DNA of 64,000 bases, taken from NCBI GenBank assembly GCA_038078835.1, contig JBBTQI010000005.1:43901-107900 (forward strand), given 5' to 3'. Below the pieces are notes generated by a model. It was not told where the DNA came from and did no database searches. It saw only the letters and a list, made by a program, of their open reading frames with translations. The DNA comes from Patescibacteria group bacterium (GTDB taxonomy: Bacteria; Patescibacteriota; UBA1384; XYA2-FULL-43-10; 1-14-0-10-43-13). A program made the position numbers and the translations under genes. Positions 1-40,961 of the stretch are shown here, one piece after another (position 1 is the first letter of the stretch; each line of letters begins with the position of its first letter).

Positions 1-1967
1 GATTGACTTTTTTCTTTGCTGTCCAGGGGAACAAGACGAAATCGTGTCCAGCTTCCCACCCCAACATAATCATGCCGCTCCAGAGAGTAGTGTTTCCCCT
101 TTATCTCAATTGCGATATTAAATTGAGTGTAATCATAAAAACCGCGAGCAAGTCTCTCGAGAATTTTCCCACCACCTGTCCGTGAGTCAAGTGGACGCCA
201 TCTCCAAAGGTAGCGCTCAAACCGCTCTCGATCATCCGGGAGCCGGCCAGCAAATTCATAATCATTTTTCTCCGCCCACTCCCTGGCCGCTCTCTCCCGT
301 TCTGCCGCCCGCTGATCTTCCCGATTGTCTGATACTTCTTTACCGTCATTATCTGCATCGGTTTTTTTCTTTCTCTCCGGCTTGACTCCTGTTGCAGGAG
401 AAATTAATTCTCCAGTATCAGCACCTGACGCCGAGCCGGCACCAGAGGGCGAAGTTGGTGGAAGCGGGGGGCCAGGATGATTGAGCAAACCGGAACCATC
501 CGAATCGCCACCAGATGAGACGGAAGCGTCTTGGGTCTGTTCGGCTGTCCTTCCTTTGTACGCACTAGCCGCTTCAGCCAATTCCTTCAACCCGCCAGAC
601 TCAATTCTCAAATCGTCCCGCGGAGACCGAACTGTTGTTATGTTATCAACTAATTCATTGGCAATGATTCCTGCCCCAACGCCAACCAAAGCTTCGGTTG
701 TATATCCATCAACCTGTGTTTCCGCAACTTCAGCCACACGGTGAAGAAATGCTTCCTTGGTCATCGATCCACCCATAGTATGCATTGCTTGCTGCCCTTG
801 CTCTACTTTATCAGCTAGGGCTCGCAATAATCTCTCCATCCCACCCTGCCCGAGCATATTAGACAAACCAAGCAGTTCTTGTGCCTGTTGTGTTGTGGCA
901 ATGTTGTTGGCAAGCTGAGGATACTCTTCCACTGCGTCAGCCAAACTATCAAGGTCAGGAGCTTTAACATCAAACACGACTTCACCTTCATGTAAATGCA
1001 CGTTGTGACCTTCATGGCCCCGGAGGTGTTCATAAATCCCGTTCCAAATTCTCGCATTTTCCGCGGTCATCCCCTCAACTCCCGGCTGATGCATCAGCCC
1101 CCCACCATGCATCTCGATGCCACGCTCAGAGAGAACTGATTGGGCTTTTTCCATAAGATCAGAGTGCTGAAAATGGGTCATTCCTTCGGCAGCGGCACCC
1201 CCAAAGAGCAATCCGCCAGCTAACGAGGCGCCAAACTTGGACCAACCCCATTTGCGCCGAATCCCTTTGAGCTCTTTGCTCTTGCTTTGAATATGTGCTT
1301 CCGAGGTTTGCTGTTGTACTTCCGTCAATTTATCAATAAAACCAAAAAGGGCGGACCGATCAATTTGCCCCAAACCCTCTTTCTTTATCCGCGTCGCCGC
1401 AGTTCGCATCTTTTTTGCGTCTAATGATTCTGGCCCGGCTTCACCGCTGTTTAATACCGAACTTAAACAATCTTTCGCGGCACTTTGAAGTTTGCCAACG
1501 GCTTGGCGGTTAAACTTTACAACATCGTCCTCGAGTGCATGTTCCCGCTCTACTACTGTCTGATCGCCAATTTTGGATTTATTTTTCCGCCAATCAACGA
1601 GTAATCGTCCAATGTTAGAGCCGATAATTCCTCCAGCAATGCCTGCCCCTGCCACCGGCGCGGCCGTGCCAAGCAAAAAGGCAACTGCCGCACCAACACC
1701 AGCACTGATGCCGGCACGCTTCAAAAATTGAATGATCTCTTCCCTTCGTTCGGCTTTTTTGTCACCGGCAAATCGCTCTGTGTGGCTGTGCCGGTTTAAT
1801 TGTTTCTCGGAAACTGCCGCCATACGCAAAATAAGCTTTTGCAACTCTCTTTGTCGACGTTTTGACTCTTTTTCAAGTTTCCCCTGCTCGGGCGCCGGAA
1901 CTCTCTCGCTCAAATCAGTCGGAGAATTCAGGCTCGCCTCAACGGGGACACTGCCGCCTTCTGCCAT
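1..1967 (-). CDS. Large hypothetical protein, N-terminal ~655 aa in window (C-terminus continues past position 1); two Gly-zipper hydrophobic segments (AGISAGVGAAVAFLLGTAAPVAGAGIAGGIIG; GASLAGGLLFGGAAAEG), His-rich patch HEGHNVHLHEGE
   Basis: Reverse strand has no stop from ATG at 1967..1965 (preceded by GGAGGGG) down to base 1; missing from ORF track only because no stop lies inside the window; TAATG stop/start overlap with upstream gene. Confidence 0.6.
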   Translation of the reverse strand, partial: MAEGGSVPVEASLNSPTDLSERVPAPEQGKLEKESKRRQRELQKLILRMAAVSEKQLNRHSHTERFAGDKKAERREEIIQFLKRAGISAGVGAAVAFLLGTAAPVAGAGIAGGIIGSNIGRLLVDWRKNKSKIGDQTVVEREHALEDDVVKFNRQAVGKLQSAAKDCLSSVLNSGEAGPESLDAKKMRTAATRIKKEGLGQIDRSALFGFIDKLTEVQQQTSEAHIQSKSKELKGIRRKWGWSKFGASLAGGLLFGGAAAEGMTHFQHSDLMEKAQSVLSERGIEMHGGGLMHQPGVEGMTAENARIWNGIYEHLRGHEGHNVHLHEGEVVFDVKAPDLDSLADAVEEYPQLANNIATTQQAQELLGLSNMLGQGGMERLLRALADKVEQGQQAMHTMGGSMTKEAFLHRVAEVAETQVDGYTTEALVGVGAGIIANELVDNITTVRSPRDDLRIESGGLKELAEAASAYKGRTAEQTQDASVSSGGDSDGSGLLNHPGPPLPPTSPSGAGSASGADTGELISPATGVKPERKKKTDADNDGKEVSDNREDQRAAERERAAREWAEKNDYEFAGRLPDDRERFERYLWRWRPLDSRTGGGKILERLARGFYDYTQFNIAIEIKGKHYSLERHDYVGVGSWTRFRLVPLDSKEKSQ

Positions 1968-2326
1968 TACCCCTCCGGGTTATCATCATCCTTTATTGTT
2001 AAACCCATTGAAACCATATCCGCCGCAGTTTTTAACTCTGCTTTATACCTGACTGCTTCTTCGATAATTATCGCTTCAACGGGAATTGCGTGCTCGCTGA
2101 AAAATTTTACAGCTGCTTCCTCGTCGGCAGCATCGCTAACCGCTTCTAAAAGCTGCTTTTGTTCCAACTCCTCGAGTAATCTCAGATTAACGCGATTCTC
2201 GATGGTTTGGAGCATTTTTGCTTTCAATGCACTCTTCTCCTCGTCGGACAGACCGCTTAACCCGATCAAGGTAAAAATATCACTATCGACAAATTTCTCA
2301 ACATCAACAATCTTACTTGAGTTCAT
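1967..2326 (-). CDS. Hypothetical acidic 119-aa protein, first gene of a two-gene operon
   Basis: Track ORF 1967..2386 trimmed to internal ATG at 2326 that is preceded by AAGGAG; stop overlaps next start (TAATG). Confidence 0.5.
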   Translation of the reverse strand: MNSSKIVDVEKFVDSDIFTLIGLSGLSDEEKSALKAKMLQTIENRVNLRLLEELEQKQLLEAVSDAADEEAAVKFFSEHAIPVEAIIIEEAVRYKAELKTAADMVSMGLTIKDDDNPEG

Positions 2327-2357
2327 ATCCCGCTCCTTATTACCTTTTATCACCATT

Positions 2358-2386
2358 AGTATACAAAAGATCCTTATGAAAAGCAA
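2358..2386 (-). promoter_or_regulatory. Sigma70-like promoter for the 2326..1 operon (-35 TTGCTT, 17-nt spacer, -10 TATACT on minus strand)
   Basis: Read on reverse strand: TTGCTTttcataaggatcttttgTATACT, about 30 nt upstream of the AAGGAG/ATG. Confidence 0.45.
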
Positions 2387-2433
2387 AAAGGCTTTCGCTA
2401 GTTAGATACAGTCTAACCTCAGCGAAAGCCTTT
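2387..2433 (-). terminator. Strong rho-independent terminator ending the GC-rich operon (13-bp stem aaaggctttcgct/agcgaaagccttt with nested 6-bp inner hairpin)
   Basis: Perfect 13-bp inverted repeat; on the minus strand it is followed by UUUUUGCUUUUC; sits exactly at the GC-content boundary. Confidence 0.6.
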
Positions 2434-2596
2434 AGCGGTACTTGCCCCGCGGCGGCCTCATCCGCCCGGGAAGGTTGGTCCAGGGAAACTCCTTGTCGTT
2501 GTTCCCGAACTGCTCCTCCCCGAGCTTCTGCCGCCACGAGGCGATCTCGTCAGAGAGAAGGTGGAGATTGCGCTCCACCTCCTCGGGTTGGCCCAG

Positions 2597-3157
2597 TCAA
2601 CTGCCCTCTTTGCCGCGCTTCTCGCGCAGGGCGGCCAGACCGGTCTTGGGCTTGGAGGCCGGCGGTGCCGAGGTTGCCATCTCCGGCGATGCCGGCTCCT
2701 TGCTCTCCTTGAGCGGGGACTCCGGCTCCGAAGACTTCTTCTCCTCCTTCTCCGCGGCCGGTTTGGGCGCAACGATCGGCTTGGGAAGCTCCGAGTTGTG
2801 ACCTTCCCGGGGACCAATCGCCAACGCTTCCCGGCCGGCCTTGACGGCCAGCCAGAGATCGAGGATGTATCCGCCCGCCAGGGTGTAGTTGAACCCCTGG
2901 GGACTCACCTCGACCGAGCCGGCCGGCTCGTCCAGCCGAACCTGCTTCTCCTCGCCGGCCTTCTGAAGGAAGACGCCCTTTGCCTTGGTCGCCACCGTGT
3001 TAGTGGGACCCTGGAAAAGGACATGGCCTTCGGCCGGGTCGGCGCCCTCGTTCTCAACGCGGATGCAAAGGAGATAGATATTCCCTTCTGGCACCCCGGC
3101 CTGGTTGATCGGCTGCTTTATCTCCGCGTCCCACGCGAAAGCAGTCACCTCTGTCAT
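2597..3157 (-). CDS. Hypothetical protein (GC-rich island 1), Lys/Pro/Glu-rich C-terminus
   Basis: 186-aa ORF, about 65% GC; start ATG 1 nt after upstream stop with GGAGGAGG inside the upstream gene end. Confidence 0.5.
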   Translation of the reverse strand: MTEVTAFAWDAEIKQPINQAGVPEGNIYLLCIRVENEGADPAEGHVLFQGPTNTVATKAKGVFLQKAGEEKQVRLDEPAGSVEVSPQGFNYTLAGGYILDLWLAVKAGREALAIGPREGHNSELPKPIVAPKPAAEKEEKKSSEPESPLKESKEPASPEMATSAPPASKPKTGLAALREKRGKEGS

Positions 3158-3158
3158 A

Positions 3159-3683
3159 TCACTCCTCCTCCTTCTCCGCCTCGGCCTCGGCGACCTTGCG
3201 GACCGCTCGTGCCAACGGATCCGGCAAAACCTTCTCCCCTCGCAGGATCGAGAGCATAGCGGGCATTGTCACGTAGGCCTCGCCGCTCATGATGTACGGG
3301 GAGTAGTCCTGCCCAGCGTCGCCGACAACCTCGTAGGTCCAGCGGCCGCTCTGGCGGGAGCGCTTGATGACGACCTCGGCGCCGTCACCATCAACCCAGG
3401 CCGGCTTACTGCCGCGCTCGACACCGTGAGGGTAATCGGCCTCCACAGCGATCGGAGCGATCAGCGCTTCCTCGCCACTTGACCGCTTCGCCTTAACAGC
3501 GAAATCAGGAAAGTAGTTGAGGAAGAGATCGGCCGCGATGTCGCCGAGATTCTTGCCCCCATACCGTCGCTGGTTGTTGGGCTGAGCAATCTCGGCGATC
3601 TCCGAGAGCCTGAAGTAGAGCCAACCAAGCGGGCCGCGAACAGCCGGCGGCTGAACTCTTGGGAAAACCGTACTCTTGGCCAT
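3159..3683 (-). CDS. Hypothetical protein (GC-rich island 1)
   Basis: Track ORF 3159..3728 trimmed to ATG (MAKSTVF...) preceded by GGAGGAGGG. Confidence 0.5.
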   Translation of the reverse strand: MAKSTVFPRVQPPAVRGPLGWLYFRLSEIAEIAQPNNQRRYGGKNLGDIAADLFLNYFPDFAVKAKRSSGEEALIAPIAVEADYPHGVERGSKPAWVDGDGAEVVIKRSRQSGRWTYEVVGDAGQDYSPYIMSGEAYVTMPAMLSILRGEKVLPDPLARAVRKVAEAEAEKEEE

Positions 3684-3899
3684 TTCTGTAAACCCTCCTC
3701 CGGTTTTAGAGGACCGGAAACCTGTCACGCGTTTCAGATTTGACAGCGTAATGGAAAGAAGCTACTCACATTCTATGAGTAATTTTTTTTCATTAATAGG
3801 TCGGATGAGACCGAGCCGCTTGGCGGCTCGGTCTCCAAATCCCCTGATTAGAAGTACGAGTTGCTTGGACAGGGATAAGTCCCCAAGCAACTCTTGGCG

Positions 3900-4448
3900 C
3901 TAAAAAGCCGGTCCGCCGGCCGGCGGTCCGGCCGGACCGCCCAGGGGTGCGGCGGAAACGGCCACGGTGCCGGCCAGCAACGGACCTGGATTCATCTGCT
4001 GCTGCCAGTCGTTGCCCTGAAGGGGCAACAAAGCCGGTGCTGCCGGATTGTGGCCGACGCTCCAGCCAATACTGATCGGCTGGCCGTTGGCGTCCGCCCG
4101 AATCGAGACGGTCACCTCGATCAGTGTCCGGGGCGGCAAGGTGAAGTTGAAGCCCCACCCCGCTGGATCGATCATCCCGGTCTTGTTCTGTGGCACCTGG
4201 CCACGGGGCTCACCGCTCGGCCCACACTCACAGGAGACATACGTTGCCGTCGCATTGGCAACATTGCTGACTCCCGCTGGGTGGATGAAGGCGATGTTAC
4301 CCTTGCCCCTGCCAGTAGAGACAGGATTGGCAATCCGGATCACGACCTTGTAGTCGCAATCCGGAGGTACTACCGCGCCGATCAGGCTGTACAGCGCGGG
4401 CTGGTTAGCGTCGTTCAGCCCGAGCAGACTGGCTTGAACGTGAAACAT
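3900..4448 (-). CDS. Hypothetical protein (GC-rich island 1), Gly/Pro-rich C-terminus
   Basis: 182-aa ORF with AAGGAGGGG RBS; stop region carries a GC palindrome. Confidence 0.5.
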   Translation of the reverse strand: MFHVQASLLGLNDANQPALYSLIGAVVPPDCDYKVVIRIANPVSTGRGKGNIAFIHPAGVSNVANATATYVSCECGPSGEPRGQVPQNKTGMIDPAGWGFNFTLPPRTLIEVTVSIRADANGQPISIGWSVGHNPAAPALLPLQGNDWQQQMNPGPLLAGTVAVSAAPLGGPAGPPAGGPAF

Positions 4449-4461
4449 TTACCCCTCCTTC

Positions 4462-4995
4462 TCATGGGTGGTGGCCAATGAAGTGTCCCGTGTTTGGCGA
4501 TGGAACCCGGTGAGTGTTGGCCACCGTGGTTGTTACCTGGGCACCCGCGACGGTCGTGCCGGGAGCCAGCGGCTGGGTAGTCGCTGGAGCGCCCGGCTGG
4601 TTGACGGTTGGTGCCATCGGTTGAACGACGACCCCCTGCGTCACCAACTGATGACGGTTCCTGATCGCCCAAGCTACTGCGAGAGCGATGGCGGCAAGCA
4701 CCACGATACCAGCGATGATCCACATATCCGTGTGGGAGGGACCATCATCCGGCATGGCGATGTAAGTCGGAGCCGGAACCGCTACGGTTGGAGCAGGTGC
4801 CGAACTGGGGGGTGCAAGTGCAACCCTAGCCGGCGACAGTGCCTTACTGGGCTCTGCCGAGTGTGCGACCGCAGCCGGCGTTGTCTGCTGGCGACGCGCC
4901 GCCATCTCCCTCAAACTCCACCAGGAGACGAGGAGGACGGTGAGCGCCATGGAAGCCAGCAAAGCCGTCCTTCTTGATATCCTTGGTATCCTCAT
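4462..4995 (-). CDS. Hypothetical membrane protein (GC-rich island 1), two predicted TM segments
   Basis: Track ORF 4462..5070 trimmed to ATG (MRIPRISRRTALLASMALTVLLV...) preceded by GAGGGG. Confidence 0.5.
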   Translation of the reverse strand: MRIPRISRRTALLASMALTVLLVSWWSLREMAARRQQTTPAAVAHSAEPSKALSPARVALAPPSSAPAPTVAVPAPTYIAMPDDGPSHTDMWIIAGIVVLAAIALAVAWAIRNRHQLVTQGVVVQPMAPTVNQPGAPATTQPLAPGTTVAGAQVTTTVANTHRVPSPNTGHFIGHHP

Positions 4996-5011
4996 CTTAC
5001 CCCTCGTTTCC

Positions 5012-5716
5012 CTAGCGTGAGACCAGCAAGAGGGTGAGAAAGACCAGAATGGCCATAATGCCCGCGGCAATGAACGCCTTGGGCCATGTCATTCCGAGTT
5101 CTCGCCAAATCTGCTGATGCTCGACGCTGTTTTGGAGCTCGCGGCGATCCTCCCGTCGATCCTGGGCCTCGTCCCGCACATCGCTGTGCAGGTTGGCCCG
5201 CTCAATCGAGCGGTTAACGGCAGTCGCCAGCTCCTCGCGAGTTGTAAACGACTGCCATTCCCGGCTTCGCCAAGTGGTGTAGGGGCGGCGGCCCACCAGG
5301 CGGTTGTTGGCAAGCGCCCGCTGAACCTCACCCATCGCCCACTCGCTCGCCGCACCGGATGGCAGTTTGGCCGGGACAATTCTGATGAATGTCCGGCCTT
5401 GTACTATCCGCCGCTCCACGACCTTCATGTGGCGACCATGTCCGACCACTGTCGTGGTAACACGGCCGCCGTGGTTGGCGGTGCCGGCTTGGCCGGCGGT
5501 CGGCACAGTGGGCTGGTCGGCGGACGAACCAACGGGCGGGTTTTGATGCCCCTCGCTGTCCTCCAGCCGCACTCTCGGCTCGCCCTTCTCTTCGGGCGAA
5601 CCGAGTGACGACGGGCCACCACGATGGGTCGTCATCACCTCTGCTCGCGCCCAGACGGGCGCGGCGTTGCTGGCAAACAGGGCTGCCAGCAGGCCCGCGA
5701 TGAGAACTCCTCTCAT
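5012..5716 (-). CDS. Hypothetical secreted protein with N-terminal signal peptide and C-terminal TM anchor (GC-rich island 1, first gene)
   Basis: 234-aa ORF; GGAGGAAGGAG RBS; signal peptide MRGVLIAGLLAALFASNAAPVWA; C-terminal hydrophobic segment. Confidence 0.55.
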   Translation of the reverse strand: MRGVLIAGLLAALFASNAAPVWARAEVMTTHRGGPSSLGSPEEKGEPRVRLEDSEGHQNPPVGSSADQPTVPTAGQAGTANHGGRVTTTVVGHGRHMKVVERRIVQGRTFIRIVPAKLPSGAASEWAMGEVQRALANNRLVGRRPYTTWRSREWQSFTTREELATAVNRSIERANLHSDVRDEAQDRREDRRELQNSVEHQQIWRELGMTWPKAFIAAGIMAILVFLTLLLVSR

Positions 5717-5937
5717 AGAGTTCTCCTTCCTCCGCTTAAGAATTATCCCCGCCTTTCGTTGTGGGATCCTTGGAGCGGATGGAGGGAGCCGATGCTGGCG
5801 TGCCCTCCCGTCAAATAGATACTAAGGCCAAAGGCATTAAGCCTCCATTTGATGAAAGGGCACTATTTTCTTGTCAAGGTGCTAATTCGCGCCAGAACGA
5901 ACCCAGTTTTTGATGGCGTGAATTCGGTGTCTGACGC

Positions 5938-6025
5938 AAAAGTGTGCTGCACGGTATAAATACGGGCGGAGGGGGAACCCGTATTCCTTCGGCTTGCGCC
6001 AAAGGAGTACCGCACAGCACACTTT
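5938..6025. repeat. Structured palindromic element A (about 88 nt): 18-bp outer stem, inner hairpin with loop CGGAGGGGGAA, second hairpin; core GGCGGAGGGGGAACC at 5965..5979
   Basis: aaagtgtgctgcacggta...taccgcacagcacacttt outer stem; atacggg/cccgtat inner stem; homologous to element B at 6628..6722. Confidence 0.55.
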
Positions 6026-6083
6026 CGCCTCCAGACAATTCGTCATCTGCTAGCTCTATATTTAGAGCCCAAAGTCATACTAC

Positions 6084-6113
6084 TGGATCCCCGATCGAGT
6101 CGGGGATGACAAC
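6084..6113. repeat. Hairpin repeat family H1, copy 1 (tggATCCCCGAtcgagTCGGGGATgacaac)
   Basis: 8-bp perfect stem; related copies at 15837, 19746-19855 and 42552. Confidence 0.5.
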
Positions 6114-6204
6114 ATTTCATTGTTCATTCCCGGTTGGTCAGTGTAACAGCGCATTATAGCATAGCAAGTGGTCGCTGTCAAGGTTTTATCCACAGAAAAC
6201 TTTG

Positions 6205-6233
6205 TTGACAGTAACATCCTGAAGGCTTAATAT
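6205..6233 (+). promoter_or_regulatory. Near-consensus sigma70 promoter (TTGACA, 17 nt, TAATAT) for the coiled-coil gene; perfect DnaA-box 9-mer TTATCCACA lies at 6186..6194 just upstream
   Basis: TTGACAgtaacatcctgaaggctTAATAT followed by AAGGAG and ATG at 6252. Confidence 0.6.
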
Positions 6234-6251
6234 CTTATCATAAGGAGAAAA

Positions 6252-6527
6252 ATGGCACTCGACAAAAACGACATTAAAATTATCAACGATCTCTTAATGA
6301 AGTCGGAAGATCGAATAATCTCCAAGGTTGATTCGAAGATTGATTTTGCTGTTGAAAAACTTGAACTTCGACTCGAGAATGTCGAACATCGATTGGAGAA
6401 TGTTGAGCTTCGACTCAAGAACGTCGAAAGAAGCATCGACGATCTAATTGAAACAAATCAAGCCTTTCTTGAGCTCTTCAATGACCACGAAAAAAGAATT
6501 ACCCGCCTTGAAACAAAAGTACTCTAG
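6252..6527 (+). CDS. Small coiled-coil protein (91 aa) with imperfect ENVE.RL heptad-like repeats
   Basis: ORF with strong promoter and AAGGAG RBS; sequence ...LELRLENVEHRLENVELRLKNVERSIDDL... Confidence 0.6.
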   Translation: MALDKNDIKIINDLLMKSEDRIISKVDSKIDFAVEKLELRLENVEHRLENVELRLKNVERSIDDLIETNQAFLELFNDHEKRITRLETKVL

Positions 6528-6627
6528 TTGACAATCCTCCTTCTCTTGGGTTCGTCTCAAAACCTGCGGGGTTGCCGGCGAATCTGCGCTATGGAGGGTT
6601 GTTTTATCTCTCTGACGGGAGAAAACA

Positions 6628-6722
6628 AAAAGTGCGGCAAGGCGCTGTATAGTCAAACGCAGGCGGAGGGGGAACCTACGACTCGCCGAAGCGAGTAAGA
6701 CTACACAGCGCGCTACCGCACT
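6628..6722. repeat. Structured palindromic element B (about 95 nt), homolog of element A; identical core GGCGGAGGGGGAACC at 6662..6676 in the same orientation
   Basis: agtgcgg..gcgctgtatagtc / gactacacagcgc..ccgcact outer stems; inner hairpin loop CGGAGGGGGAA; hairpin actcgc-cgaa-gcgagt. Confidence 0.55.
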
Positions 6723-6784
6723 GATTTGCTCTAATTGCTCAGAACATCTGATGTTATCATACCTAAATTTTTTTGTCAAGAGGA

Positions 6785-7993
6785 TTATTCTTGGCGCAAC
6801 TCCCGCATCAGGTTTAGATATTGCCAGAGGTTGTGGAGCGTGGCCAGACGCAAACCCAAAATCTCATTGGATCGCAGAAGATGGGAGATGTAAGCACGAG
6901 AGAAACCGGCGGTGCAAGCGGGACAGGCGCAATTTTCATCAATCACTTTTGGATCCTCGCGATATCGGGAGTTTAGGAGATTAATTAACTCGTAGCCCTC
7001 ACCCCCACCCTCTCCCCGGAGGGGCGAGGGGATTTGTTGTTGGTCGTTGGAACGTTCGTCGTCCATTTCTGATTTGCAAACATAGACAGAACCGTGCCTC
7101 GCTAAACGTGTCGGCAGGACGCAGTCAAACATATCCATACCCAAACGGGTTGCCTGAATAATATCATCGGGGGTTCCCACACCCATAAGATAGCGCGGTT
7201 TGTCTTGGGGTAGAATCTCCCCCATTAATTTAACTATGTCCCACATATCGCGCGTCTCCAGATCAACCGCCAAACCGCCCACGGCATAACCGTCAAAGCC
7301 GATCTCCGCCAGTGCTGCGGCGCACTCTTGCCGCAAAGTAAGATCCAACCCACCCTGGACAATAGCAAACAGCAGCGGCCGGAGGCTGGAGGCCTGTCCG
7401 TTGAGCCTTGGGCCTTGGGCGCGGGCAAGAAAATGTTTTTTTGCCCGCTTCGCCCATTCGATCGTTAGTTGTGTCGCGCGCTTGATCTCCTCCGGCGTCG
7501 CCTTGCCGCTCGGGCACACGTCAAGCGGCATTAAGATGTCCACGCCCAGATCGAGCTGAATATCGATAACCCTTTCCGGTGTGAAAAAATGCTTCGAGCC
7601 GTCAAGGTGAGAAGTGAACTCGACGCCATCATCACAAATTTGCACCAACCCATCCGCCTGAGGCCTGAGGCCTGAGGCCTGAGACGAGTTTTTAGCCAGG
7701 CTAAAAACCTGGTAGCCGCCGGAGTCCGTAAGAATCGGTTTATCCCAGCGCATAAAGGAGTGCAGACCACCCAATTTTTTAATAAGCCTCTCGCCCGGCC
7801 GGAGATAGAGATGATAAGTGTTGGCCAAAATAATTTCGGCCCCAAGTTCTTTGAGCTCCCGCGGCGCCACCCCCTTGACACTGCCCGCTGTCCCCACCGG
7901 CATAAAAAAGGGAGTGCGAATAAGACCGTGGGGAATAGTCAACTCGCCAACGCGAACAGCGCTTTCTAGTTTTTTAATCAGTGAAAATGGCAT
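6785..7993 (-). CDS. tgt: Queuine tRNA-ribosyltransferase (tRNA-guanine transglycosylase)
   Basis: Tgt-like N-terminus (...FFMPVGT...), Zn motif CACPACTAG...H, catalytic region LTDSGGYQVFSL. Confidence 0.9.
   Translation of the reverse strand: MPFSLIKKLESAVRVGELTIPHGLIRTPFFMPVGTAGSVKGVAPRELKELGAEIILANTYHLYLRPGERLIKKLGGLHSFMRWDKPILTDSGGYQVFSLAKNSSQASGLRPQADGLVQICDDGVEFTSHLDGSKHFFTPERVIDIQLDLGVDILMPLDVCPSGKATPEEIKRATQLTIEWAKRAKKHFLARAQGPRLNGQASSLRPLLFAIVQGGLDLTLRQECAAALAEIGFDGYAVGGLAVDLETRDMWDIVKLMGEILPQDKPRYLMGVGTPDDIIQATRLGMDMFDCVLPTRLARHGSVYVCKSEMDDERSNDQQQIPSPLRGEGGGEGYELINLLNSRYREDPKVIDENCACPACTAGFSRAYISHLLRSNEILGLRLATLHNLWQYLNLMRELRQE
7656..7683. repeat. Tandem heptanucleotide repeat (gcctgag x4, 28 nt) inside tgt coding sequence
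   Basis: Four perfect 7-nt units; encodes SQASGLRPQA in the Tgt frame. Confidence 0.8.
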
Positions 7994-11294: not shown

Positions 11295-11975
11295 TTATAT
11301 CGGTTTAATAATTTTTGAAACAGCGAATATGATTATACTTAAACCGAGACTTAAAATCAACAAAATGACAACAGTCGAGAGAACGAGAGCGAGTTGATCG
11401 GGAATGTAGGGGGTGATATCGGGGCGAATGCTGGTGTAACGATAGAGACCATAACCGATCAGGCCAAGTAATCCGACCGTAAAAGCAATGTTCATTAAAT
11501 CCTGGGCGCTCGGATTCATTGTCACTGTAATTGAGAGCAAAAGGTAGACCAGAATTAGCGTCTTCTTGCTCTCCATATCGAGACTGCGGGCTAAATCAAT
11601 GATATGATTAAGTATGCTCTGGTATGAAAAGTTCACAACATCAAACTCAACCTGCCTAAAACCGATAAATTTGGAGAGGACATAGATTGCCGCCACCCCC
11701 ACAACCAGCGGTGCCAGCGAGATAATAATCTGGCCGAAGATCGGGACCTTGGGCCGCTTGTGCTCGACACTGCCGCCCTTAGGATCAAAAAGATTAACGG
11801 CGTGGAGCTTGGCCCCGGTCAGCAGGCAGGCAGTGGTATGAGCCATCTCGTGAAGTATGACGCCGGGCGCGACAAACCAGCGGTAACGGCCGCCCAAAAG
11901 AGAACGCGACAAGAAGAAGTCGATCATTATAGCAATGACCGGTATCGCTCCCAATAATATCGCTATTTCCTTCAT
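11295..11975 (-). CDS. Polytopic membrane zinc-metalloprotease-like protein (HEMAH motif)
   Basis: Track ORF trimmed to MKEIAILL with AGGAGG RBS; HExxH plus multiple TM helices. Confidence 0.55.
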   Translation of the reverse strand: MKEIAILLGAIPVIAIMIDFFLSRSLLGGRYRWFVAPGVILHEMAHTTACLLTGAKLHAVNLFDPKGGSVEHKRPKVPIFGQIIISLAPLVVGVAAIYVLSKFIGFRQVEFDVVNFSYQSILNHIIDLARSLDMESKKTLILVYLLLSITVTMNPSAQDLMNIAFTVGLLGLIGYGLYRYTSIRPDITPYIPDQLALVLSTVVILLILSLGLSIIIFAVSKIIKPI

Positions 11976-12117: not shown

Positions 12118-12853
12118 AGGGGACGGTTCTCTTTTAGATACAGTTTTACACTTTTTAAGTCTTTATCTTCCGATCTATCTTGTCTTGTTCTCTATAACGT
12201 TGAATGTCGCTACCCCAGATGGGTTTCCGATATGATTCCTCGATTATTTGAGCAACGAGCAATCCTTGGTAGTTGGTTTGTCGCTCCGCTTCGTTCTTTC
12301 CCATTGCCTCGTACATGAAATCAGGTGTGATAAGAGGATTTTTCTCACCCATAGAATAAAATCGATAACTGGAGTAAAGATACTCCTCTGGACTTTTTGC
12401 CAGATCGGCTCTGATTGGATTGAGTTCAATATATTTTCCGCACTGGATAAAGTAAGCATCTTTGCCAATAGTTTGGCTTTTAAAACGATCCTGCCAAAAG
12501 TGGCCCACCCAATTATATTTTTGTTGGTAATGGTGAAAATATGCCAAGTTTATTTTTTTCATAAAGACAGAGAACTCGCTGGCATGCTTTGTCTGAATCT
12601 GAAAATGGGTATGCGTTGGCATAAGACAATAATGATAGAGGTCAAAAGGGTGTTCTATCTTGTATTTCGCAAGTAATTCCAAATAGTACAAGTAGTCATC
12701 GGGCGACCTAAAGACAACACTGCGGTTATTGCCTCGCGTCATAATATGATAGTAACTTTGTGACAAGAGAAGCCTTTTTGCCCTGGGCATATAGCAATAA
12801 TACCAAGATTGACAAAAAAGTGTAATTTTGTAATCAAAAGAGAACCGTCCCCT
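12118..12853 (-). mobile_element. REP-associated (RAYT-like) / IS200-like Y1 transposase unit bounded by perfect 18-bp inverted repeats (aggggacggttctctttt / aaaagagaaccgtcccct)
   Basis: 18-bp perfect inverted repeat at 12118..12135 and 12836..12853 flanking the Y1 transposase gene; short repeat clusters outside each inverted repeat. Confidence 0.55.
12155..12790 (-). CDS. IS200/IS605-family Y1 (HuH) tyrosine transposase, RAYT-like
   Basis: Track ORF trimmed to MPRAKRLL; HuH motif LYHYCLMPTHTHF and ...WQDRFKS... catalytic Tyr region. Confidence 0.75.
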   Translation of the reverse strand: MPRAKRLLLSQSYYHIMTRGNNRSVVFRSPDDYLYYLELLAKYKIEHPFDLYHYCLMPTHTHFQIQTKHASEFSVFMKKINLAYFHHYQQKYNWVGHFWQDRFKSQTIGKDAYFIQCGKYIELNPIRADLAKSPEEYLYSSYRFYSMGEKNPLITPDFMYEAMGKNEAERQTNYQGLLVAQIIEESYRKPIWGSDIQRYREQDKIDRKIKT

Positions 12854-12892
12854 TTCCGCAGTCCCCTTTCCGCAAGCGTCCCCTTTCCGCAA
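12847..12892. repeat. Three tandem copies of gtcccctttccgca(a) just outside the right inverted repeat
   Basis: cgtcccctttccgca gtcccctttccgcaa gcgtcccctttccgcaa; gagtgagg-type repeats at the left end (12070-12120). Confidence 0.7.
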
Positions 12893-12951
12893 GCTTCCTG
12901 AGGCAGAATCAGTGATTGCTTTGTAGTTTAAAATTCTAAATTTGTTGAGCT

Positions 12952-13752
12952 TCATAGAATTATAGTTTGCTTTTCATATAATATTGGCAAAGCGTCCTGC
13001 CTCATACGAAATTTTGTGCCGTGGTTATGGCCGGTGCGGGCGTCGAAATCCACAAGAATTTTTCCTTCTTCCAGCGCTTTCAAAAATCCTTCAAAACTGA
13101 ATTTCTGCAACATCATCACTTTTGTGTAATGATAAAATTCTTTTTTCCGAACGATTTTGACTTCGGCTTGAACATAAAAACAGTTCAGCAATTTTGTTCC
13201 CGCTTTGTGTTTCAAGTCATCAAAACCCCAATACGGTTGTGGATTTAATTCACTTAGACCGACCCTCTTTTTGACTAATTTTTTCCAACCGGAATGTTTT
13301 TCAGCTATTTTTTTGCTGTTGAAAGAAATTAAAACCTTCTGCTCCTTTTTGTCTATCTTCACAAAAAACCCTCGGTCGGAAACCGATGAACCACAGATTG
13401 TTTGCCTAAAACTCATTTCTTCAGATTTATATTTTGTCCCGGCTTCTTGGTGCCCCCAGCCATAAAGGGGTAAAAGAATTTTTGGGACAAATCCTACTGC
13501 TCGAGGTGATGGCTCCATATGAAAAAGTGTTGTGAGAGAACAGGTATTTATCCTCTGGGTCTTGAGTTCCCACTCTGCTGCGTTTGGAATTGGTAAATTA
13601 TTTTCCTGTATCCCGAGTAAATCCTCAAGCGTATTACCAATTCCACCGCTATTACCATGTCTCGCATTTGGAATCCAACCCTTTTTAACAATTTCCTTGA
13701 ACTTTTCAATGAGTGATTCTTTGGAAAATAGTACCGGTTTCTTTATCATCAC
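12952..13752 (-). CDS. Type II restriction endonuclease, MvaI/BcnI-like
   Basis: Pattern matches recalled BcnI/MvaI blocks (GNTLEDLLGIQENN...EWELK..., LTTLFHMEP); about 40% GC versus about 50% genome; adjacent MTase. Confidence 0.65.
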   Translation of the reverse strand: MMIKKPVLFSKESLIEKFKEIVKKGWIPNARHGNSGGIGNTLEDLLGIQENNLPIPNAAEWELKTQRINTCSLTTLFHMEPSPRAVGFVPKILLPLYGWGHQEAGTKYKSEEMSFRQTICGSSVSDRGFFVKIDKKEQKVLISFNSKKIAEKHSGWKKLVKKRVGLSELNPQPYWGFDDLKHKAGTKLLNCFYVQAEVKIVRKKEFYHYTKVMMLQKFSFEGFLKALEEGKILVDFDARTGHNHGTKFRMRQDALPILYEKQTIIL

Positions 13753-13757
13753 GCTCC

Positions 13758-14510
13758 TTATATTAGCTTACCCTGAGCAGTATGTTTTTTTATTCTCTCT
13801 TCTGCCATTTTGCAGTACTCTGGCGATACATCTATTCCGATATAGTTCCGATTAAAATTAATCGCAGACAGAGCAGTCGTACCTGAACCCATAAATGGAT
13901 CGAGGACTACATTTGCATTTGTTGAGGAAATTATGCGGTTGATTAGCTTTACAGGAAAAGGTGCGGGGTGGCCATTTTTCATTTCTTGGGTAAATTCCCA
14001 AATATCACCATAAGCATTAGCCTTAGGAGACAGTTTAAATTTGGGCTTAGCAATCAAATAGATAACTTCGTAAGTCGGTAAAAAATATCCGGCGTTGAAG
14101 TTGAGCCCGCCTTTTCTTTTCCAAATGATAATTTGCCTTACAGGAAAGCCGCTAACTATATCTTGACGATCTTGCAAAAGTCCTGCTTGCACCCTCCATT
14201 TATGGTTATAAAAAATGGCTCCATTCTCGGGAATAATACGCATTGCCTCATTCAGAAATTCTCTTTGCCATTGAGCGTATAACTCGTGGGGCATATTGTC
14301 ATCATAATTTGCGTATCCTTTTTGCAAAGCAGCATTTGCCCATTTGCCGCCACGCCCATCTTTCATACCATTACCGGTTGAATTCTTTAAATTATATGGC
14401 GGTGAAGTGATTACCAAGTCAACTACTCCATTAGGAATCTGCTTCATCACTTCAACGACATCACCACAGATTATTTTGTTGATAAAATCATCCGGATATT
14501 TCATTTTCAC
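13758..14510 (-). CDS. Beta-class DNA N4-cytosine/N6-adenine methyltransferase (motif IV DLVITSPPY before motif I DPFMGSGTT)
   Basis: SPPY and FxGxG motifs in beta-class order; cognate MTase of the adjacent REase. Confidence 0.8.
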   Translation of the reverse strand: MKMKYPDDFINKIICGDVVEVMKQIPNGVVDLVITSPPYNLKNSTGNGMKDGRGGKWANAALQKGYANYDDNMPHELYAQWQREFLNEAMRIIPENGAIFYNHKWRVQAGLLQDRQDIVSGFPVRQIIIWKRKGGLNFNAGYFLPTYEVIYLIAKPKFKLSPKANAYGDIWEFTQEMKNGHPAPFPVKLINRIISSTNANVVLDPFMGSGTTALSAINFNRNYIGIDVSPEYCKMAEERIKKHTAQGKLI

Positions 14511-19957: not shown

Positions 19958-20752
19958 TTACTGGATGCCGCCGTTGAGGTTGCTCGGCGGCGGCAGAGGC
20001 GGAGCAGTTGGTCCGTCATAACCTGGTAGGGTGGTGCCGCCTACACCACTCCAACTACCCGGCACGTTCAGCGCCGGATCCCAGGACAGCGGCGGCGGCC
20101 CGATCCCGGACTTAAACGTCCCCGCTTGCTTGGGATTGATGATCTTCGTCTGGGACGGCACCCGCCGTCCCAGAATAGCCGCCGTCCGGATGAGCGGACG
20201 GGTTGTGACCGTCCGCGTTCCGACAGCCACGGTTCGAGCTGGGGCAGAGGGCTTCCAACCAACCATCGGCACCCGAGCGCGTTCCTGCGGCGATATCACC
20301 GTCACCTGTGCCGGCGGCGCAGTGACATTCACTACCGGTGCTGGACAGGGTTGTAGCGACGGCGCTGGAGCGGGTTGAACTCCCGGCGTCAGCGTAGCCG
20401 ACACCGAGAGAAACGTCTCTGCCTTCTTGGTCTCGCCCCAGCAGCCCCAAGAGGGGTTGCCGCAGTCGAGCCGGCGGACGATGCTGTACTTGCCGGCGGC
20501 GCAGGTGTACTCCACCCACGTTCCGGCCAAGTGCACGGCGTTGTGTGGTTTGGGCCGACCCCTCTCCCAGCGCCAAACTCCACCGACAACCGCCGCCGGC
20601 AGGCGGCCGTAGAAGTGGCCGGCCGGGGGCTGCCGCGCCGGCCCTGACCAACCCGGCCAGGGATCCCAGCAATAGATGGCGGCATCGGGCAGGGCCGCTT
20701 GTGCCACCCCACCGATGCCGACGATTAACGCCGCAAGCACTATCACTCTCAC
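19958..20752 (-). CDS. Secreted Cys- and Pro-rich hypothetical protein (GC-rich island 2), GTG start
   Basis: Track ORF trimmed to GTG (VRVIVLAALIVGIGGVAQA signal peptide) preceded by AAGGAGGTGGG; about 65% GC. Confidence 0.5.
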   Translation of the reverse strand: MRVIVLAALIVGIGGVAQAALPDAAIYCWDPWPGWSGPARQPPAGHFYGRLPAAVVGGVWRWERGRPKPHNAVHLAGTWVEYTCAAGKYSIVRRLDCGNPSWGCWGETKKAETFLSVSATLTPGVQPAPAPSLQPCPAPVVNVTAPPAQVTVISPQERARVPMVGWKPSAPARTVAVGTRTVTTRPLIRTAAILGRRVPSQTKIINPKQAGTFKSGIGPPPLSWDPALNVPGSWSGVGGTTLPGYDGPTAPPLPPPSNLNGGIQ

Positions 20753-20763
20753 TGCCCACCTCC

Positions 20764-22110
20764 TTATCGCCCAACCCAACCTGTGGCCGTGATGGTCAGG
20801 GTTGGCGTCGGGCTTGATGCTGAAAGCTCGAACCAGCCGGAACAGGTCCGGCCGGTGCCGACGATGGAGTGCCGCCACTTGTACTTGCCTGGCGGCAGTT
20901 CGATTGGCGGCGCGTTGGGATTGGCACAGGAGCGCGCCGGACAGACCGGCTGACCCATCACGCTCAGGATCTCGATCGTCTGCACCGACAGGGCGCAGTT
21001 CATCTGGTTAATGATCCTGATTGTAAGGCGGATACTCCCGGTCGGAACGTTTGGCACATCCGATGACGGCTGGCCGGCCTCGACCCGAGACACTCTAGTC
21101 TTGAGGTTGGCAATGTCGCCCTCAACCTGCTCCAACCTGGTGCCGATGCCGTCGACCTTGACGTTCAACGCACCAAACCCGTTCTGTATCTGCTGGGAGA
21201 GATCTCCCGCCGGCAGATGGTCGGCCGGATGGGCGGACGCGCCTTCCGGTAATGGCAGCTCGGTTAGCCCGGCTGTTGCTGTTCCCTCAGCAAGCAACGC
21301 CTCGAGGCGTTGCGCTTCCTGCTCCTGCGTCATGAAGCCGCCCCGGGCAAACTTGGCATTACTGAGGTGTTCTCGCATGGCCGACGTAACGGCCACTCTC
21401 CATGCCTGCTTCCAGAGCCTAAACCTCGGGTCACAGTCAGCCTGGTCCTCGTCGATCAAGTACGGGTCGGTCAGGCCGGGCGGGAGCGGACAGATACCGC
21501 TAATGTATCGCTTACTGCTCGCGGTTTGGTCGATCACGTCAAACCCGGACCCGCTGACGTTGGCCGTCCTTCCCCGGTCAACGAAACGAAACAGTAACAG
21601 GTATCTCCTTTCTCTCCGCACGACCGAGAAAGACCGGACCAGGAAGTCACAGTTGACGCCGGCTGTGATCGACTCGGTTTCGATCACATACCGGTTTCGG
21701 TCAATCTTCTGCCACTTGTCGTCAGCGGATGCTCCGCGGATCACGACCTCCGGCCGGGTATCAACGACATCACCCCTCGAGTTAACGATGGTGAGGTCGG
21801 CCCGCAGATAGCGGAACATTGGCCAGAAGACAGGGTCATACTTGATGACCGTGATCGCCCCCGGGTCCCACAGCACATCGGCACCATCTCCGACCGCGGA
21901 ACGGCTCGCGCTTAACTTGACGGCGATGCCGAAAGTCTCGGCAGTGACCTTCTCTCTCGCGATCAGCTTACTGACCTCTTCGCTCTCGACAACCAGTTCA
22001 GTGGTGCCGAGAAAACGAGCCTGCACGGGCATGATGCTGACCGGCACTACGAGGGCCGTCAGCACCAACACAGAAAGCCAGATGGCTCTTGTGCCTCTCA
22101 TTTTACCCAT
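20764..22110 (-). CDS. Secreted hypothetical protein, 448 aa (GC-rich island 2)
   Basis: Signal peptide MRGTRAIWLSVLVLTALVVPVSIMPVQA; about 65% GC. Confidence 0.55.
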   Translation of the reverse strand: MGKMRGTRAIWLSVLVLTALVVPVSIMPVQARFLGTTELVVESEEVSKLIAREKVTAETFGIAVKLSASRSAVGDGADVLWDPGAITVIKYDPVFWPMFRYLRADLTIVNSRGDVVDTRPEVVIRGASADDKWQKIDRNRYVIETESITAGVNCDFLVRSFSVVRRERRYLLLFRFVDRGRTANVSGSGFDVIDQTASSKRYISGICPLPPGLTDPYLIDEDQADCDPRFRLWKQAWRVAVTSAMREHLSNAKFARGGFMTQEQEAQRLEALLAEGTATAGLTELPLPEGASAHPADHLPAGDLSQQIQNGFGALNVKVDGIGTRLEQVEGDIANLKTRVSRVEAGQPSSDVPNVPTGSIRLTIRIINQMNCALSVQTIEILSVMGQPVCPARSCANPNAPPIELPPGKYKWRHSIVGTGRTCSGWFELSASSPTPTLTITATGWVGR

Positions 22111-39263: not shown

Positions 39264-39902
39264 TTAATCGTAATTTCGCGAAGTGGCAAGAGATTTGATC
39301 GTAACGGCGGCATTATCGGCAATATTTTCGCCCCTCCGAATGACCTCAACCGAAAATCCGACGAAGGGCTGGCGGGTTGCCGGCATAACCGAGGGCGCAA
39401 AACCGGACAGCCGCAATGTTGTCTCAAACTCCTCGTCAACAATCGCCGGAGTGCTGGCTACCTCGCTAATTATCGCCTGGTTAATCTGGTTTAGGGAGGA
39501 ATATTTTTTATAGCGAAGGCGGCCGGCGGAGTTTAGGTAAAAACCAACACCGTCTGAGAGCCCGACAACGAGCGCGTTGGCCTCGGTCGTCTCCGGCGCC
39601 GTATTGCCAACCGCCTGGCAACTGTTGTCGCTGCAATTTAAAATCGCCAAACCCCGAAACTCCAGCGAATGAAGGCTGAATCTTCGACTGTCGTCAGCCT
39701 GGCGAATATCGCGCGTCAGCATATCGGTAATGCGCCGAGCATTTTCCGATACTCCCCGCATTGCTTTGAGCTTGCGCTGATAGGTGATCGCCTGAGTTGT
39801 TGTCGCCGTTACCAAAACCATCATCACGGCAAAAATCGTGGCGGCAATTAATATCTCCATTAGAGTAAAGCCGGGGGTCTTTTTATGGATTTTTTGCGTC
39901 AT
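39264..39902 (-). CDS. Prepilin-type N-terminal cleavage/methylation protein (pseudopilin)
   Basis: GFTLMEILIA class III signal. Confidence 0.7.
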   Translation of the reverse strand: MTQKIHKKTPGFTLMEILIAATIFAVMMVLVTATTTQAITYQRKLKAMRGVSENARRITDMLTRDIRQADDSRRFSLHSLEFRGLAILNCSDNSCQAVGNTAPETTEANALVVGLSDGVGFYLNSAGRLRYKKYSSLNQINQAIISEVASTPAIVDEEFETTLRLSGFAPSVMPATRQPFVGFSVEVIRRGENIADNAAVTIKSLATSRNYD

Positions 39903-39926
39903 CTTTTTTTATGGATTTTTTGCGTC

Positions 39927-40499
39927 CTAATAGTTTGGCCGCCAGTTAGTCAAAATCTCGCTGAGACGATATGAATCACTCCGCCAGCGCACCTCGATAT
40001 CAACCCGGAGAGCATTACTGTCGCGATTTGTAATCCCCCGGGCCAAAAGGTCGCCGGCGGGTCGGCTGATTCTAACCGAACGGATAAACTCCAAGCCGTC
40101 TACTGTTGTTGCGTCCTGGTTGGCCGAACCATCGGCAATTAGATAATAGCGGTCGCCCGATAAGCGCAGATAACCGGCAATATCGCCGTCCGTTGTAATC
40201 CGGGAGAGGGCAGAGGCCTTGTCCGGCGTCAGCGAGTCCCAGCCAGTGGCGTTGTCGCCATCGATCCAGTTAGTATCTCTAATCTGCCGGACAATCTCAA
40301 TCCCCTCCCCCGCCAGGTAGGCGGCTTGAGCCCGTTCGGTCAGATGGTCGCTGGTATCCATCGCCGCCCGGCCAACTGTTACCAGTGCGCCCAGCAAAGT
40401 CATAATGATAACGGCCGAGATTAGAACTTCGAGCAGACCAAAACCGGATTTTGTCTTTAGGGGGAGGAAACTCCTTACTTTTGAATGATGATTCGCCAT
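39927..40499 (-). CDS. Pseudopilin
   Basis: GFGLLEVLIS prepilin motif. Confidence 0.7.
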   Translation of the reverse strand: MANHHSKVRSFLPLKTKSGFGLLEVLISAVIIMTLLGALVTVGRAAMDTSDHLTERAQAAYLAGEGIEIVRQIRDTNWIDGDNATGWDSLTPDKASALSRITTDGDIAGYLRLSGDRYYLIADGSANQDATTVDGLEFIRSVRISRPAGDLLARGITNRDSNALRVDIEVRWRSDSYRLSEILTNWRPNY

Positions 40500-40960
40500 G
40501 GGTCGGGCACTATTGAATAAGAAACGTTTTTATTAATCTTGGTGTCGGAGTAAATAAAGATCACTGTGCTCTCCGTTGGGCGCACGACATTGTCGAGCGC
40601 GTCTCTCAGTTGGCAAATTTGACCCGGCGAAAGACACTCCAGGCGATAATTTCCAGCCACCGACTCATTTTCGCCCAGATTTATCGCGCCCACAACCTGA
40701 GACAGATTATTGGTTAACTCGATTGTCCCGCCGGCCGCATCCGGCACCAAACGATAACTCTCGACATCTTTTTCCGGATTTTTCGCCCGCGTAATTGCCT
40801 GGGCGGCAAGCGACTCGATTTCGGCCGCGCGGTTATCGAAGCGATTCTTCTGGCCGTAATCCTCCATCGCCGGAATCGCCGCCAGGGCCATCATCACAAT
40901 AATGGCAGTTGTGATTGCCACCTCAATAAAGGTAAACCCCCTTTTCCGAACTGGACTCAT
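40475..40960 (-). CDS. Pseudopilin
   Basis: RGFTFIEVAIT prepilin motif. Confidence 0.7.
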   Translation of the reverse strand: MSPVRKRGFTFIEVAITTAIIVMMALAAIPAMEDYGQKNRFDNRAAEIESLAAQAITRAKNPEKDVESYRLVPDAAGGTIELTNNLSQVVGAINLGENESVAGNYRLECLSPGQICQLRDALDNVVRPTESTVIFIYSDTKINKNVSYSIVPDPWRIIIQK

Positions 40961-40961
40961 A

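Follow-up and report, generated by a model that had tools for sequence, protein, structure and literature searches.

A block of five genes with a conspicuously high GC content (g1–g5; Table 1) lies at positions 2432-5800 of the 64,000-nt stretch of DNA analysed here (the window), which stems from a metagenome-assembled genome (MAG) of the Patescibacteria, or candidate phyla radiation (CPR), from Hainich groundwater. An earlier note, made from the letters of this DNA, had suggested a horizontally acquired cassette. Our comparison with related genomes indicates that the locus has long been GC-enriched throughout the clade, and that the enrichment is no footprint of a recent transfer into this genome. 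The order of the locus is conserved as well: tgt is followed by one or two copies of a structured RNA, a gene of the g1 type, lineage-specific extras, a DUF5663 gene, a gene for a giant membrane protein and, later, one for a VirD4-like ATPase. The RNA represents a previously undescribed family, and g2–g5 (possibly also a sixth candidate, g6) are an expansion common only to one other known CPR genome. We read the block as the fast-evolving, GC-enriched variable head of a clade-conserved cluster of envelope or host-contact genes, a reading with an even chance of being right, in which the function is what we infer.

The locus in related genomes

Along the window, GC content rises from 0.41–0.49 to 0.62–0.67 at about position 2430 and falls back to 0.41–0.49 at about 5800 (averaged over 400 nt), giving 62.4% for the island at 2432-5800 versus 49.0% for the window minus its two GC-rich blocks. 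The lower edge is abrupt, the terminator marking a step from 0.34–0.42 to 0.66 in the space of 100 nt. The compositional break described earlier is hence real, and it extends to synonymous sites and to the dinucleotide signature.

Relatives were fetched via tgt from species-representative genomes, with a best tgt match of 68% (L006), and are labelled Berkelbacteria or Saccharibacteria. GC-rich blocks lie directly downstream of tgt in L008, L011, L013, L014 and L015. In every genome bearing the structured RNA, the product of the next gene, 70–450 nt downstream, combines a signal peptide, pilin-like in L008, with a region that is helical or a coiled coil and with a membrane anchor, at the start of which there is usually a Trp; g1 is the positional and architectural counterpart of this gene in all relatives. 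It lies above the locus median GC in 11 of 11 genomes, the window counted, by +0.05 (L006), +0.10 (L010), +0.11 (L012), +0.14 (g1 in the window), +0.18 (L138), +0.19 (L011 and L015), +0.21 (L013), +0.22 (L147), +0.23 (L127) and +0.30 (L008), and it is on these 11 genomes that we base the conclusion that the enrichment belongs to the locus across the clade. GC at third codon positions (GC3) is 0.40–0.77 in the post-RNA genes and 0.30–0.58 in tgt. More distant CPR loci showed neither the RNA nor GC-rich blocks. An illustrative gene at the island position is L008 12952-14163, with 69% GC in a relative of 39% GC; its product starts with a prepilin-type motif, continues with a coiled coil and then a membrane segment, and ends in a tail rich in Pro and Gln.

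The only homologous cassette found sits on L086, a 3.3-kb CPR contig, at the equivalent position upstream of a DUF5663 gene. Its genes g1', g2' and g3' precede a structured spacer, after which come g4' and g5' and then, in turn, a hairpin, a terminator, a perfect promoter and a DUF5663-like gene; this end has the same layout as in the window. The block of L086 has 62–74% GC and its flank 45–50%. A g1-like C-terminal anchor occupies the g1 position; g2' is a membrane protein of 68 amino acids (aa) with a weak match to g2 (45% over 49 aa, E = 0.005); the g3 orthologue P0005 shows 31% identity; the protein at the g4 position (149 aa) reaches 22% in a global alignment and is not significant by BLAST; and the g5 orthologue P0008 shows 30% over 128 aa (E = 2e-7). 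The spacer of about 200 nt is of lower GC, contains hairpins and is equivalent to the g3-g4 spacer of the window, and the same GAGGAGGTG...CACCTCCTC hairpin is present in both. The cassette is thus old enough for its two versions to have drifted to about 30% identity, and both are nevertheless GC-rich and syntenic. The synteny check proposed in the earlier note therefore came out in two ways: the first gene is GC-enriched throughout and L086 is collinear, but g2–g5 do not occur in the other relatives examined.

Downstream of the block, DUF5663 homologues are present in L008, L011, L006 and L015. The gene follows the block directly in the window, L086, L008 and L011, and stands a few kb further in L006 and L015. 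Past it, the window encodes a 953-aa membrane protein, five more proteins and an 852-aa protein, all of normal GC. The 852-aa protein, about 8 kb downstream, matches DUF8128 and, faintly, T4SS-DNA_transf (VirD4-type); the six proteins between it and the DUF5663 gene have no informative Pfam match, and no papers on DUF5663 were found in the literature. A paper on hypervariable genes of Gracilibacteria turned out to be unrelated.

The structured RNA upstream of the block

The conserved element between tgt and the block emerged from comparing the upstream regions of relatives. It is an RNA of about 100 nt with an outer helix of 21 bp that has a U-run at its end; within this helix lie a variable hairpin and a stem of 5 bp on which the invariant loop UUCCCCCUCCGCC is exposed. 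An alignment of 11 sequences yielded a consensus of 27 pairs with compensatory changes in 19 of them. With further instances from relatives and metagenome contigs, retrieved by the invariant loop motif, the covariance model R1 covers 21 copies in 13 genomes (two in the window and 19 elsewhere). Across these copies, 96.1% of the cells pair and 24 of the 27 pairs have changed on both sides, compared to at most 12 pairs in slid controls. The occurrences, often as tandem pairs, are in the window, L006, L008-L013, L015, L115, L118, L127, L138 and L147, and the RNA always separates tgt from the GC-enriched gene whose product has the signal peptide, helical region and anchor.

The RNA matches no Rfam family: in the window only tRNAs reach the threshold, and a permissive scan of 2300-6800 gave a single chance match to let-7 (E = 0.019). 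It is probably identical to the "element A" near which the earlier note had placed the start of the operon. A 91-aa open reading frame (ORF) of 38% GC at 6252-6527 (+), annotated as a gene in the record of the European Nucleotide Archive (ENA), is located between the RNA copies, on the strand opposite to theirs, and encodes a heptad-like repeat (LELRLENVEHRLENVELRLKNVERS).

With its promoter-like sites, U-runs and invariant unpaired loop, the RNA is a candidate for a trans-acting small regulatory RNA. Like the RsaE/RoxS-type RNAs with C-rich loops, it is preceded by a promoter-like site, contains a helix that resembles a terminator and is followed by a U-run, and exposes an invariant C-rich loop, unpaired and complementary to GGAGG; unlike them, it belongs to no Rfam family and its targets are putative. 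Predicted pairing is stronger with the sites of the island (mean duplex energy -20.6 kcal/mol) than with those of other genes (-11.6 kcal/mol), but it is generic to GGAGG, and besides the two RNA genes themselves no specific extended target of the loop was found in the window. Since it always sits directly ahead of one gene, the RNA could equally well be a cis-acting leader. A mutant form of the loop, in which CCCCCUCC is changed to GGGGGAGG, is proposed.

Island genes and their expression

Long ORFs occur in all six frames of the block, as in any DNA of 65% GC, which is why coding periodicity was checked. The pattern GC3 > GC1 > GC2 (the latter two denoting first and second codon positions) appears in the called frames only, with GC3 of 0.66–0.80; overlapping alternative ORFs lack it, and it is weakest in g2. 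Together with the homologues and the beta-sandwich fold of g3 and g5, this directly shows that the island genes are real. An artefact has become practically negligible, be it a chimeric assembly, a join to a contaminant or a set of ORFs arising by chance where GC-rich DNA is non-coding. Three short-read assemblies do break inside the block at 3912-3926, where the 3' end of g3 contains a GC-rich palindrome that explains the breaks; yet near-identical contigs exist in ENA ERZ1292632 and several Logan assemblies, both junctions are bridged at >=99.96% identity in two assemblies made independently from other samples, and the same layout recurs in relatives from unrelated studies. The misassembly or contaminant join that the earlier note had asked about is thereby refuted.

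Between the assemblies, five single-nucleotide polymorphisms (SNPs) were counted in 12 kb, all at 3908-3948 at the 3' end of g3, where they alter the tail (...PLGGPAGPPAGGPAF versus ...PRGGPAGPPAGVPTF). These differences may be real micro-variation or an assembly effect induced by the palindrome. A diversity-generating retroelement, raised by this SNP cluster, was rejected: there is no reverse transcriptase and no template repeat, and the site is that of the palindrome.

None of g1–g6 belongs to a family in Pfam, PHROGs, NCBIfam or PADLOC, in agreement with the earlier description of unrecognised genes devoid of housekeeping functions. Among 5.8 billion clustered proteins, a word-indexed search returned no homologue of g1 and g4 besides those of the own genome. 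The genes g3 and g5 are paralogues (24% identity over 112 aa, E = 1e-4), and their profile found one further true member, P0005, and two chance matches to repeat proteins among 1.84 billion representatives; a four-sequence profile gave nothing further, and nothing below E = 0.07 was found among PDB sequences. For the g3 domain, AlphaFold2 predicts a beta-sandwich of nine strands (predicted local distance difference test, pLDDT, 72.7), which weakly matches the Eph ligand-binding domain, the RetS periplasmic domain, a CBM, PA14 domains and phage fibre tips. The single-sequence model of g4 is unusable (pLDDT 45.7).

A role at the cell envelope is plausible in view of the signal peptide and anchor of g1 and the two hydrophobic segments of g2, both of which our predictions confirm as first described, and of the beta-sandwich models of g3 and g5. 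The statement that the island encodes only secreted or membrane proteins is wrong for g3, g4 and g5, which have neither a signal peptide nor a hydrophobic segment. Of the proposed phage, host-interaction or cell-surface relationship, the envelope part is hence plausible; no phage tube, sheath or encapsulin fold was found with PHROGs, which returned nothing below E = 0.2, or with the g3 model, which matched generic folds only, the g4 model being too poor for a search.

All five genes are co-directional, as described before, and on the minus strand. Their tight coupling, however, holds only within g1-g3 and within g4-g5. The 216-nt spacer dividing the two groups is strongly structured and might serve for processing or attenuation of the transcript or as an internal promoter. 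The candidate g6 has its Shine-Dalgarno site and start codon enclosed in a 12-bp hairpin (2555-2584). In L086, this hairpin and an ERN(L/V)HLL coding stretch are conserved and the ORF has just 16 codons, so whether g6 is a gene is uncertain. The strong terminator reported at the end of the island, directly followed by the promoter of the DUF5663 operon, was recovered (Table 1).

Table 1. Features of the island, its upstream region and its surroundings in the window.
Feature	Position	Strand	Description
DUF5663-family gene	1967..2326	-	normal GC; Pfam E = 2.9e-4, just under curated cut-off; heads the downstream cluster
Intrinsic terminator	2387..2433	-	-29 kcal/mol, z = -6.65; 13+7 bp stem, then UUUUUGCUUU (U-run)
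Candidate sixth ORF (g6)	2578..2432	-	GTG start, 48 codons, GC3 0.88; missed by the earlier note
g5	3157..2597	-	186 aa; beta-sandwich domain, 60-residue Pro/Lys/Glu-rich tail; starts 1 nt after g4 stop
g4	3683..3159	-	174 aa; predicted as mixed alpha/beta, with acidic tail and no export signal
g3-g4 spacer	3684..3899	-	216 nt, lower GC, three hairpins of 9-13 bp, AT-rich stretch; z = -7.25
g3	4448..3900	-	182 aa; beta-sandwich domain, Pro/Gly tail, no export signal
g2	4995..4462	-	177 aa; two hydrophobic segments, Pro/Ala/Thr-rich linkers
g1	5716..5012	-	234 aa; signal peptide, low-complexity region, charged helical segment (by eye), Trp-flanked C-terminal anchor
Structured g1 leader	5717..5933	-	long hairpin at GC boundary; predicted folds
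Structured RNA copy 2	5934..6031	-	architecture and loop as copy 1, weaker U-run (UUUU); R1 63.9 bits
Perfect sigma-70-type promoter	6153..6181	-	TTGACA, 17 nt, TATAAT, extended -10; 12/12 consensus matches
Structured RNA copy 1	6626..6722	-	21-bp outer helix, short hairpin with loop UUCCCCCUCCGCC, then U-run; R1 96.8 bits
Promoter-like site upstream of RNA copy 1	6751..6779	-	TTGACA, 17 nt, TAACAT, with TG; consensus scan
Second GC-rich block	19958..22110	-	62.7% GC; island-like codon shifts and dinucleotide signature

Promoter-like sites precede both RNA copies in the window, and TTGACA/TATAAT-type sites stand in relatives at the place equivalent to that of copy 1. The perfect promoter likely starts a transcript that comprises RNA copy 2 and, by read-through, the island. 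The 430-nt leader with RNA copy 2 folds at -180 kcal/mol (z = -8.7). In the g1 leader, a C-rich stretch further upstream (about 5783-5728) is the predicted pairing partner of the Shine-Dalgarno sequence GCGGAGG, and the AUG lies in the loop of a predicted 9-bp hairpin (5725-5702); these folds might have a regulatory meaning. In a side observation, a 24-nt hairpin, CATCCCCGAC(T/C)CGATCGGGGAT, occurs twice in the window with zero chance occurrences expected, namely at 6085-6108 (-) in the island leader and at 42555-42578 (+) between a type IV pilin gene and pilC.

The strong GGAGG-type ribosome-binding sites noted before are present on all five island genes and likewise on the first gene of the second GC-rich block. 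Most genes of the window have weak or no Shine-Dalgarno sequences and few others are G-rich (e.g., 11295-11975 and 48502-49107), a contrast that may be somewhat overstated, as start codons of host genes were chosen automatically.

Taken together, these features suggest a possible course of expression. Transcription would start at 6181-6153 and read through RNA copy 2, and translation of each island gene would depend on the strong G-rich Shine-Dalgarno sites, which could be partly sequestered in cis and are complementary to the invariant loop of the RNA. Of the products, g1 would be helical and anchored, g2 a membrane protein with two spans, g3 and g5 jelly-roll beta-sandwiches with disordered tails, and g4 small and acidic. 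Together with the downstream apparatus, they might work at the envelope of the cell and would probably contact a host cell or a substrate.

Composition and origin of the block

The GC excess could be thought of as a mere by-product of disordered envelope proteins rich in Ala, Pro, Gly and Arg. Indeed, these residues are more frequent in the island than in host proteins (Lys, Ile, Leu, Phe, Tyr and Asp are less frequent), and long Pro/Gly/Ala-rich tails occur. Coding GC is 0.640 in the island and 0.515 in the host, and re-coding of the island proteins with host synonymous usage gives 0.595, so that about 64% of the excess is due to amino-acid composition. The remaining excess is synonymous and contradicts this explanation, which as a full account we consider very improbable: GC3 of the island is 0.746 (host, 0.579), compared to 0.621 expected from host codon choice for the same composition. 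The shifts are strong in two-fold families, with 0.68 vs 0.18 for Phe TTC, 0.92 vs 0.49 for Lys AAG and 0.79 vs 0.45 for Asn AAC, and are also seen for Ile ATC (0.70 vs 0.40). They lie mostly in codons with AT-rich prefixes, while codon choice for Ala, Gly, Pro, Thr and Arg, and in four-fold families starting with G or C, is host-like. A codon bias linked to high expression was ruled out, since the ribosomal-protein genes do not share these shifts.

The GC-normalised dinucleotide signature differs as well. Its distance to the host (delta*) is 116 for the island and 151 for the second GC-rich block, compared to an average of 43–53 and a peak of 79–104 among host segments, and at 79 the two blocks are within the normal range of each other. 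GC, GC3 and delta* alike thus set the island apart from its host, as would be expected of acquired DNA. The earlier note would have given up its interpretation had many such blocks existed in the genome, and the window does contain one more. This second block, flanked by cysS and the gene of a DUF11 surface protein, has two ORFs, one for a 448-aa protein whose N-terminus carries a hydrophobic segment and one of 306 aa that is membrane-spanning as read by eye; it has neither a Pfam match nor a copy of the structured RNA.

These compositional traits, the sharp GC boundaries and the orphan proteins would fit a single recent acquisition from a GC-rich bacterium or phage, as originally proposed. 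Beyond the foreign-like composition, little of this proposal stands; it is largely refuted and we regard it as improbable. A cassette of about 30% identity occupies the same site in another CPR genome, and the four-fold codon families that start with G or C are already host-like. No empty site was found for the island among the related genomes examined: a GC-enriched gene occupies the equivalent site in all 11 genomes, and L086 carries a homologous five-gene cassette. Searches of the six ORFs against Pfam, PHROGs, NCBIfam and PADLOC revealed no integrase, transposase or recombinase in the block or at its edge, the nearest transposase-like gene (Y1_Tnp) being about 6.4 kb off, past tgt and ribosomal protein genes. 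Self-comparison of 2301-6300 with the window gave only short palindromes and chance matches, and thus no flanking direct repeats or duplicated attachment site. Regarding a donor, of which about 15 billion proteins gave no sign, the 5.8 billion clusters and 1.84 billion representatives contain matches only in the own genome and L086, and IMG/VR, the INPHARED phages and the PLSDB plasmids (four single-protein viral scans among these) hold no relatives of the island proteins. With respect to an integron, no recombinase was found among the genes called around the locus, the intergenic hairpins not having been compared with attC models.

In the surroundings of the block, the region 12155-14504 (-), of about 39–40% GC, looks like a more conventional mobile or defence insertion: it is the positional counterpart of an IS200-like Y1 transposase and MvaI/BcnI-type restriction genes in L001, and contains a methyltransferase-like ORF (SPPY motif) after the restriction gene.

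The main rival explanation is an insertion hotspot, where GC-rich cassettes from an external pool repeatedly land beside the RNA gene, as islands do at tRNA or tmRNA genes. The synonymous shift and dinucleotide signature are foreign-like and common to the second block, the GC3 of the locus genes clusters at about 0.67–0.77 regardless of host GC (33–50%), gene content varies between lineages from one to five genes, and the block lies directly downstream of a small RNA gene. In addition, genomic islands are reported to be common in groundwater Patescibacteria (PMC12455944). Yet the flanks show no integrase, transposase, att-like direct repeats or duplication of the RNA gene, both RNA copies being upstream on the same side of the block, and neither a donor nor a vehicle turned up among 1.8 billion representative proteins, in IMG/VR or in the phage and plasmid collections. 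The architecture of the first gene is constant, even where the GC excess is low, and looks like one gene evolving in place; moreover, the cassettes of the window and L086 are homologous, collinear and set between the same flanks. On balance, we consider a hotspot rather unlikely, though it deserves to be taken seriously.

Several observations nevertheless speak against our reading of a variable head evolving in place within a conserved cluster. The foreign-like dinucleotide signature and the host-independent GC3 fit an external GC-rich pool, and GC3 of the post-RNA genes does not follow that of the host. L006, the nearest relative by tgt (68%), has almost no excess (+0.05), and a trait as patchy as this fits replacement better than steady vertical maintenance. 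Sequence similarity between g1-type proteins is undetectable save for three weak pairs (L008/L015, L013/L127 and L138/L147), for which reason their orthology is a matter of position and layout only. Any GGAGG site would allow the pairing predicted between the RNA loop and the Shine-Dalgarno sequences, and no extension of the complementarity is seen in relatives. Fold matches of the g3 model are weak (TM-score 0.3–0.46) and to generic jelly-roll binding modules only; an envelope location of g3–g5 is a guess, as these proteins lack export signals; and the hint that the downstream cluster might resemble a type IV secretion system (T4SS) is faint, coming from one faint Pfam match.

Comparison with known systems gives a mixed picture. 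Like a classical genomic island, the block has sharp boundaries, atypical codon and dinucleotide usage, envelope-enriched genes of unknown function and an adjoining small RNA gene; unlike one, it lacks an integrase, transposase, flanking repeats and an identifiable donor, all related genomes examined show GC enrichment at this locus, and the sole homologous cassette is syntenic in another CPR genome. The O-antigen and capsule loci of Enterobacteria and pneumococci are variable surface loci exchanged between conserved flanks; they are AT-shifted and encode sugar-pathway enzymes of recognisable families. They would share with our locus the conserved flanks, the divergent content, the clade-wide atypical composition and the cell-surface products, while the block is GC-shifted and encodes small orphan proteins, and a recombinational exchange is putative here. 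The Mycoplasma P1/MgPa operons and the mycobacterial PE_PGRS genes, GC-enriched adhesin or surface genes, serve as a lead rather than as a quantified parallel. As in our case, envelope or adhesin genes well above genomic GC, in a reduced genome, are fast-evolving and rich in Pro, Gly and Ala; those genes, however, vary by dispersed repeats and gene conversion, whereas the window contains no repeat copies of the island, and there is no sequence relationship.

Under our preferred reading of a variable head within a conserved cluster, the cause of the enrichment could be allele exchange from a GC-rich pool via recombination in the flanks, GC-biased conversion, or selection. In a bolder and doubtful version, which we put forward tentatively, a family-level clade of Patescibacteria holds one envelope or host-contact locus 10–30 GC points above the genome by a locus-specific process, and the invariant anti-Shine-Dalgarno-like loop of the adjacent RNA gates translation of genes that depend to an unusual degree on Shine-Dalgarno sites. 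The process could be GC-biased conversion resulting from frequent allele exchange, or selection tied to the control by the adjacent RNA. That the island genes are codon-matched to a GC-rich host and delivered via the neighbouring VirD4-like system is hardly credible.

If true, the bolder version would describe a new pair of RNA and regulon marking host-contact determinants in uncultured ultra-small bacteria. Patescibacteria are thought to live attached to other cells, and their contact proteins are almost wholly unknown and hard to find by homology. In this context, the combination of the covarying RNA, a GC-enriched gene with signal peptide, helical region and anchor, and the DUF5663 cluster offers a homology-free handle on a candidate contact locus that can be searched for in metagenomes. 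A sharp GC island in a MAG need not reflect recent transfer or contamination, which bears on bin curation and on island-based estimates of transfer; given how common islands are in groundwater Patescibacteria, the distinction between evolution in place and transfer is relevant to such surveys. Enrichment at a single locus across genomes of 33–50% GC furthermore provides a test case for GC-biased conversion versus gene-pool exchange.

Elsewhere in the window, a type IV pilus cluster of normal GC was recognised by motifs at 39264-47533 (-), comprising several GFTLIELL pilin-like genes as well as prepilin-peptidase-like, PilC-like and PilB/PilT-like genes.

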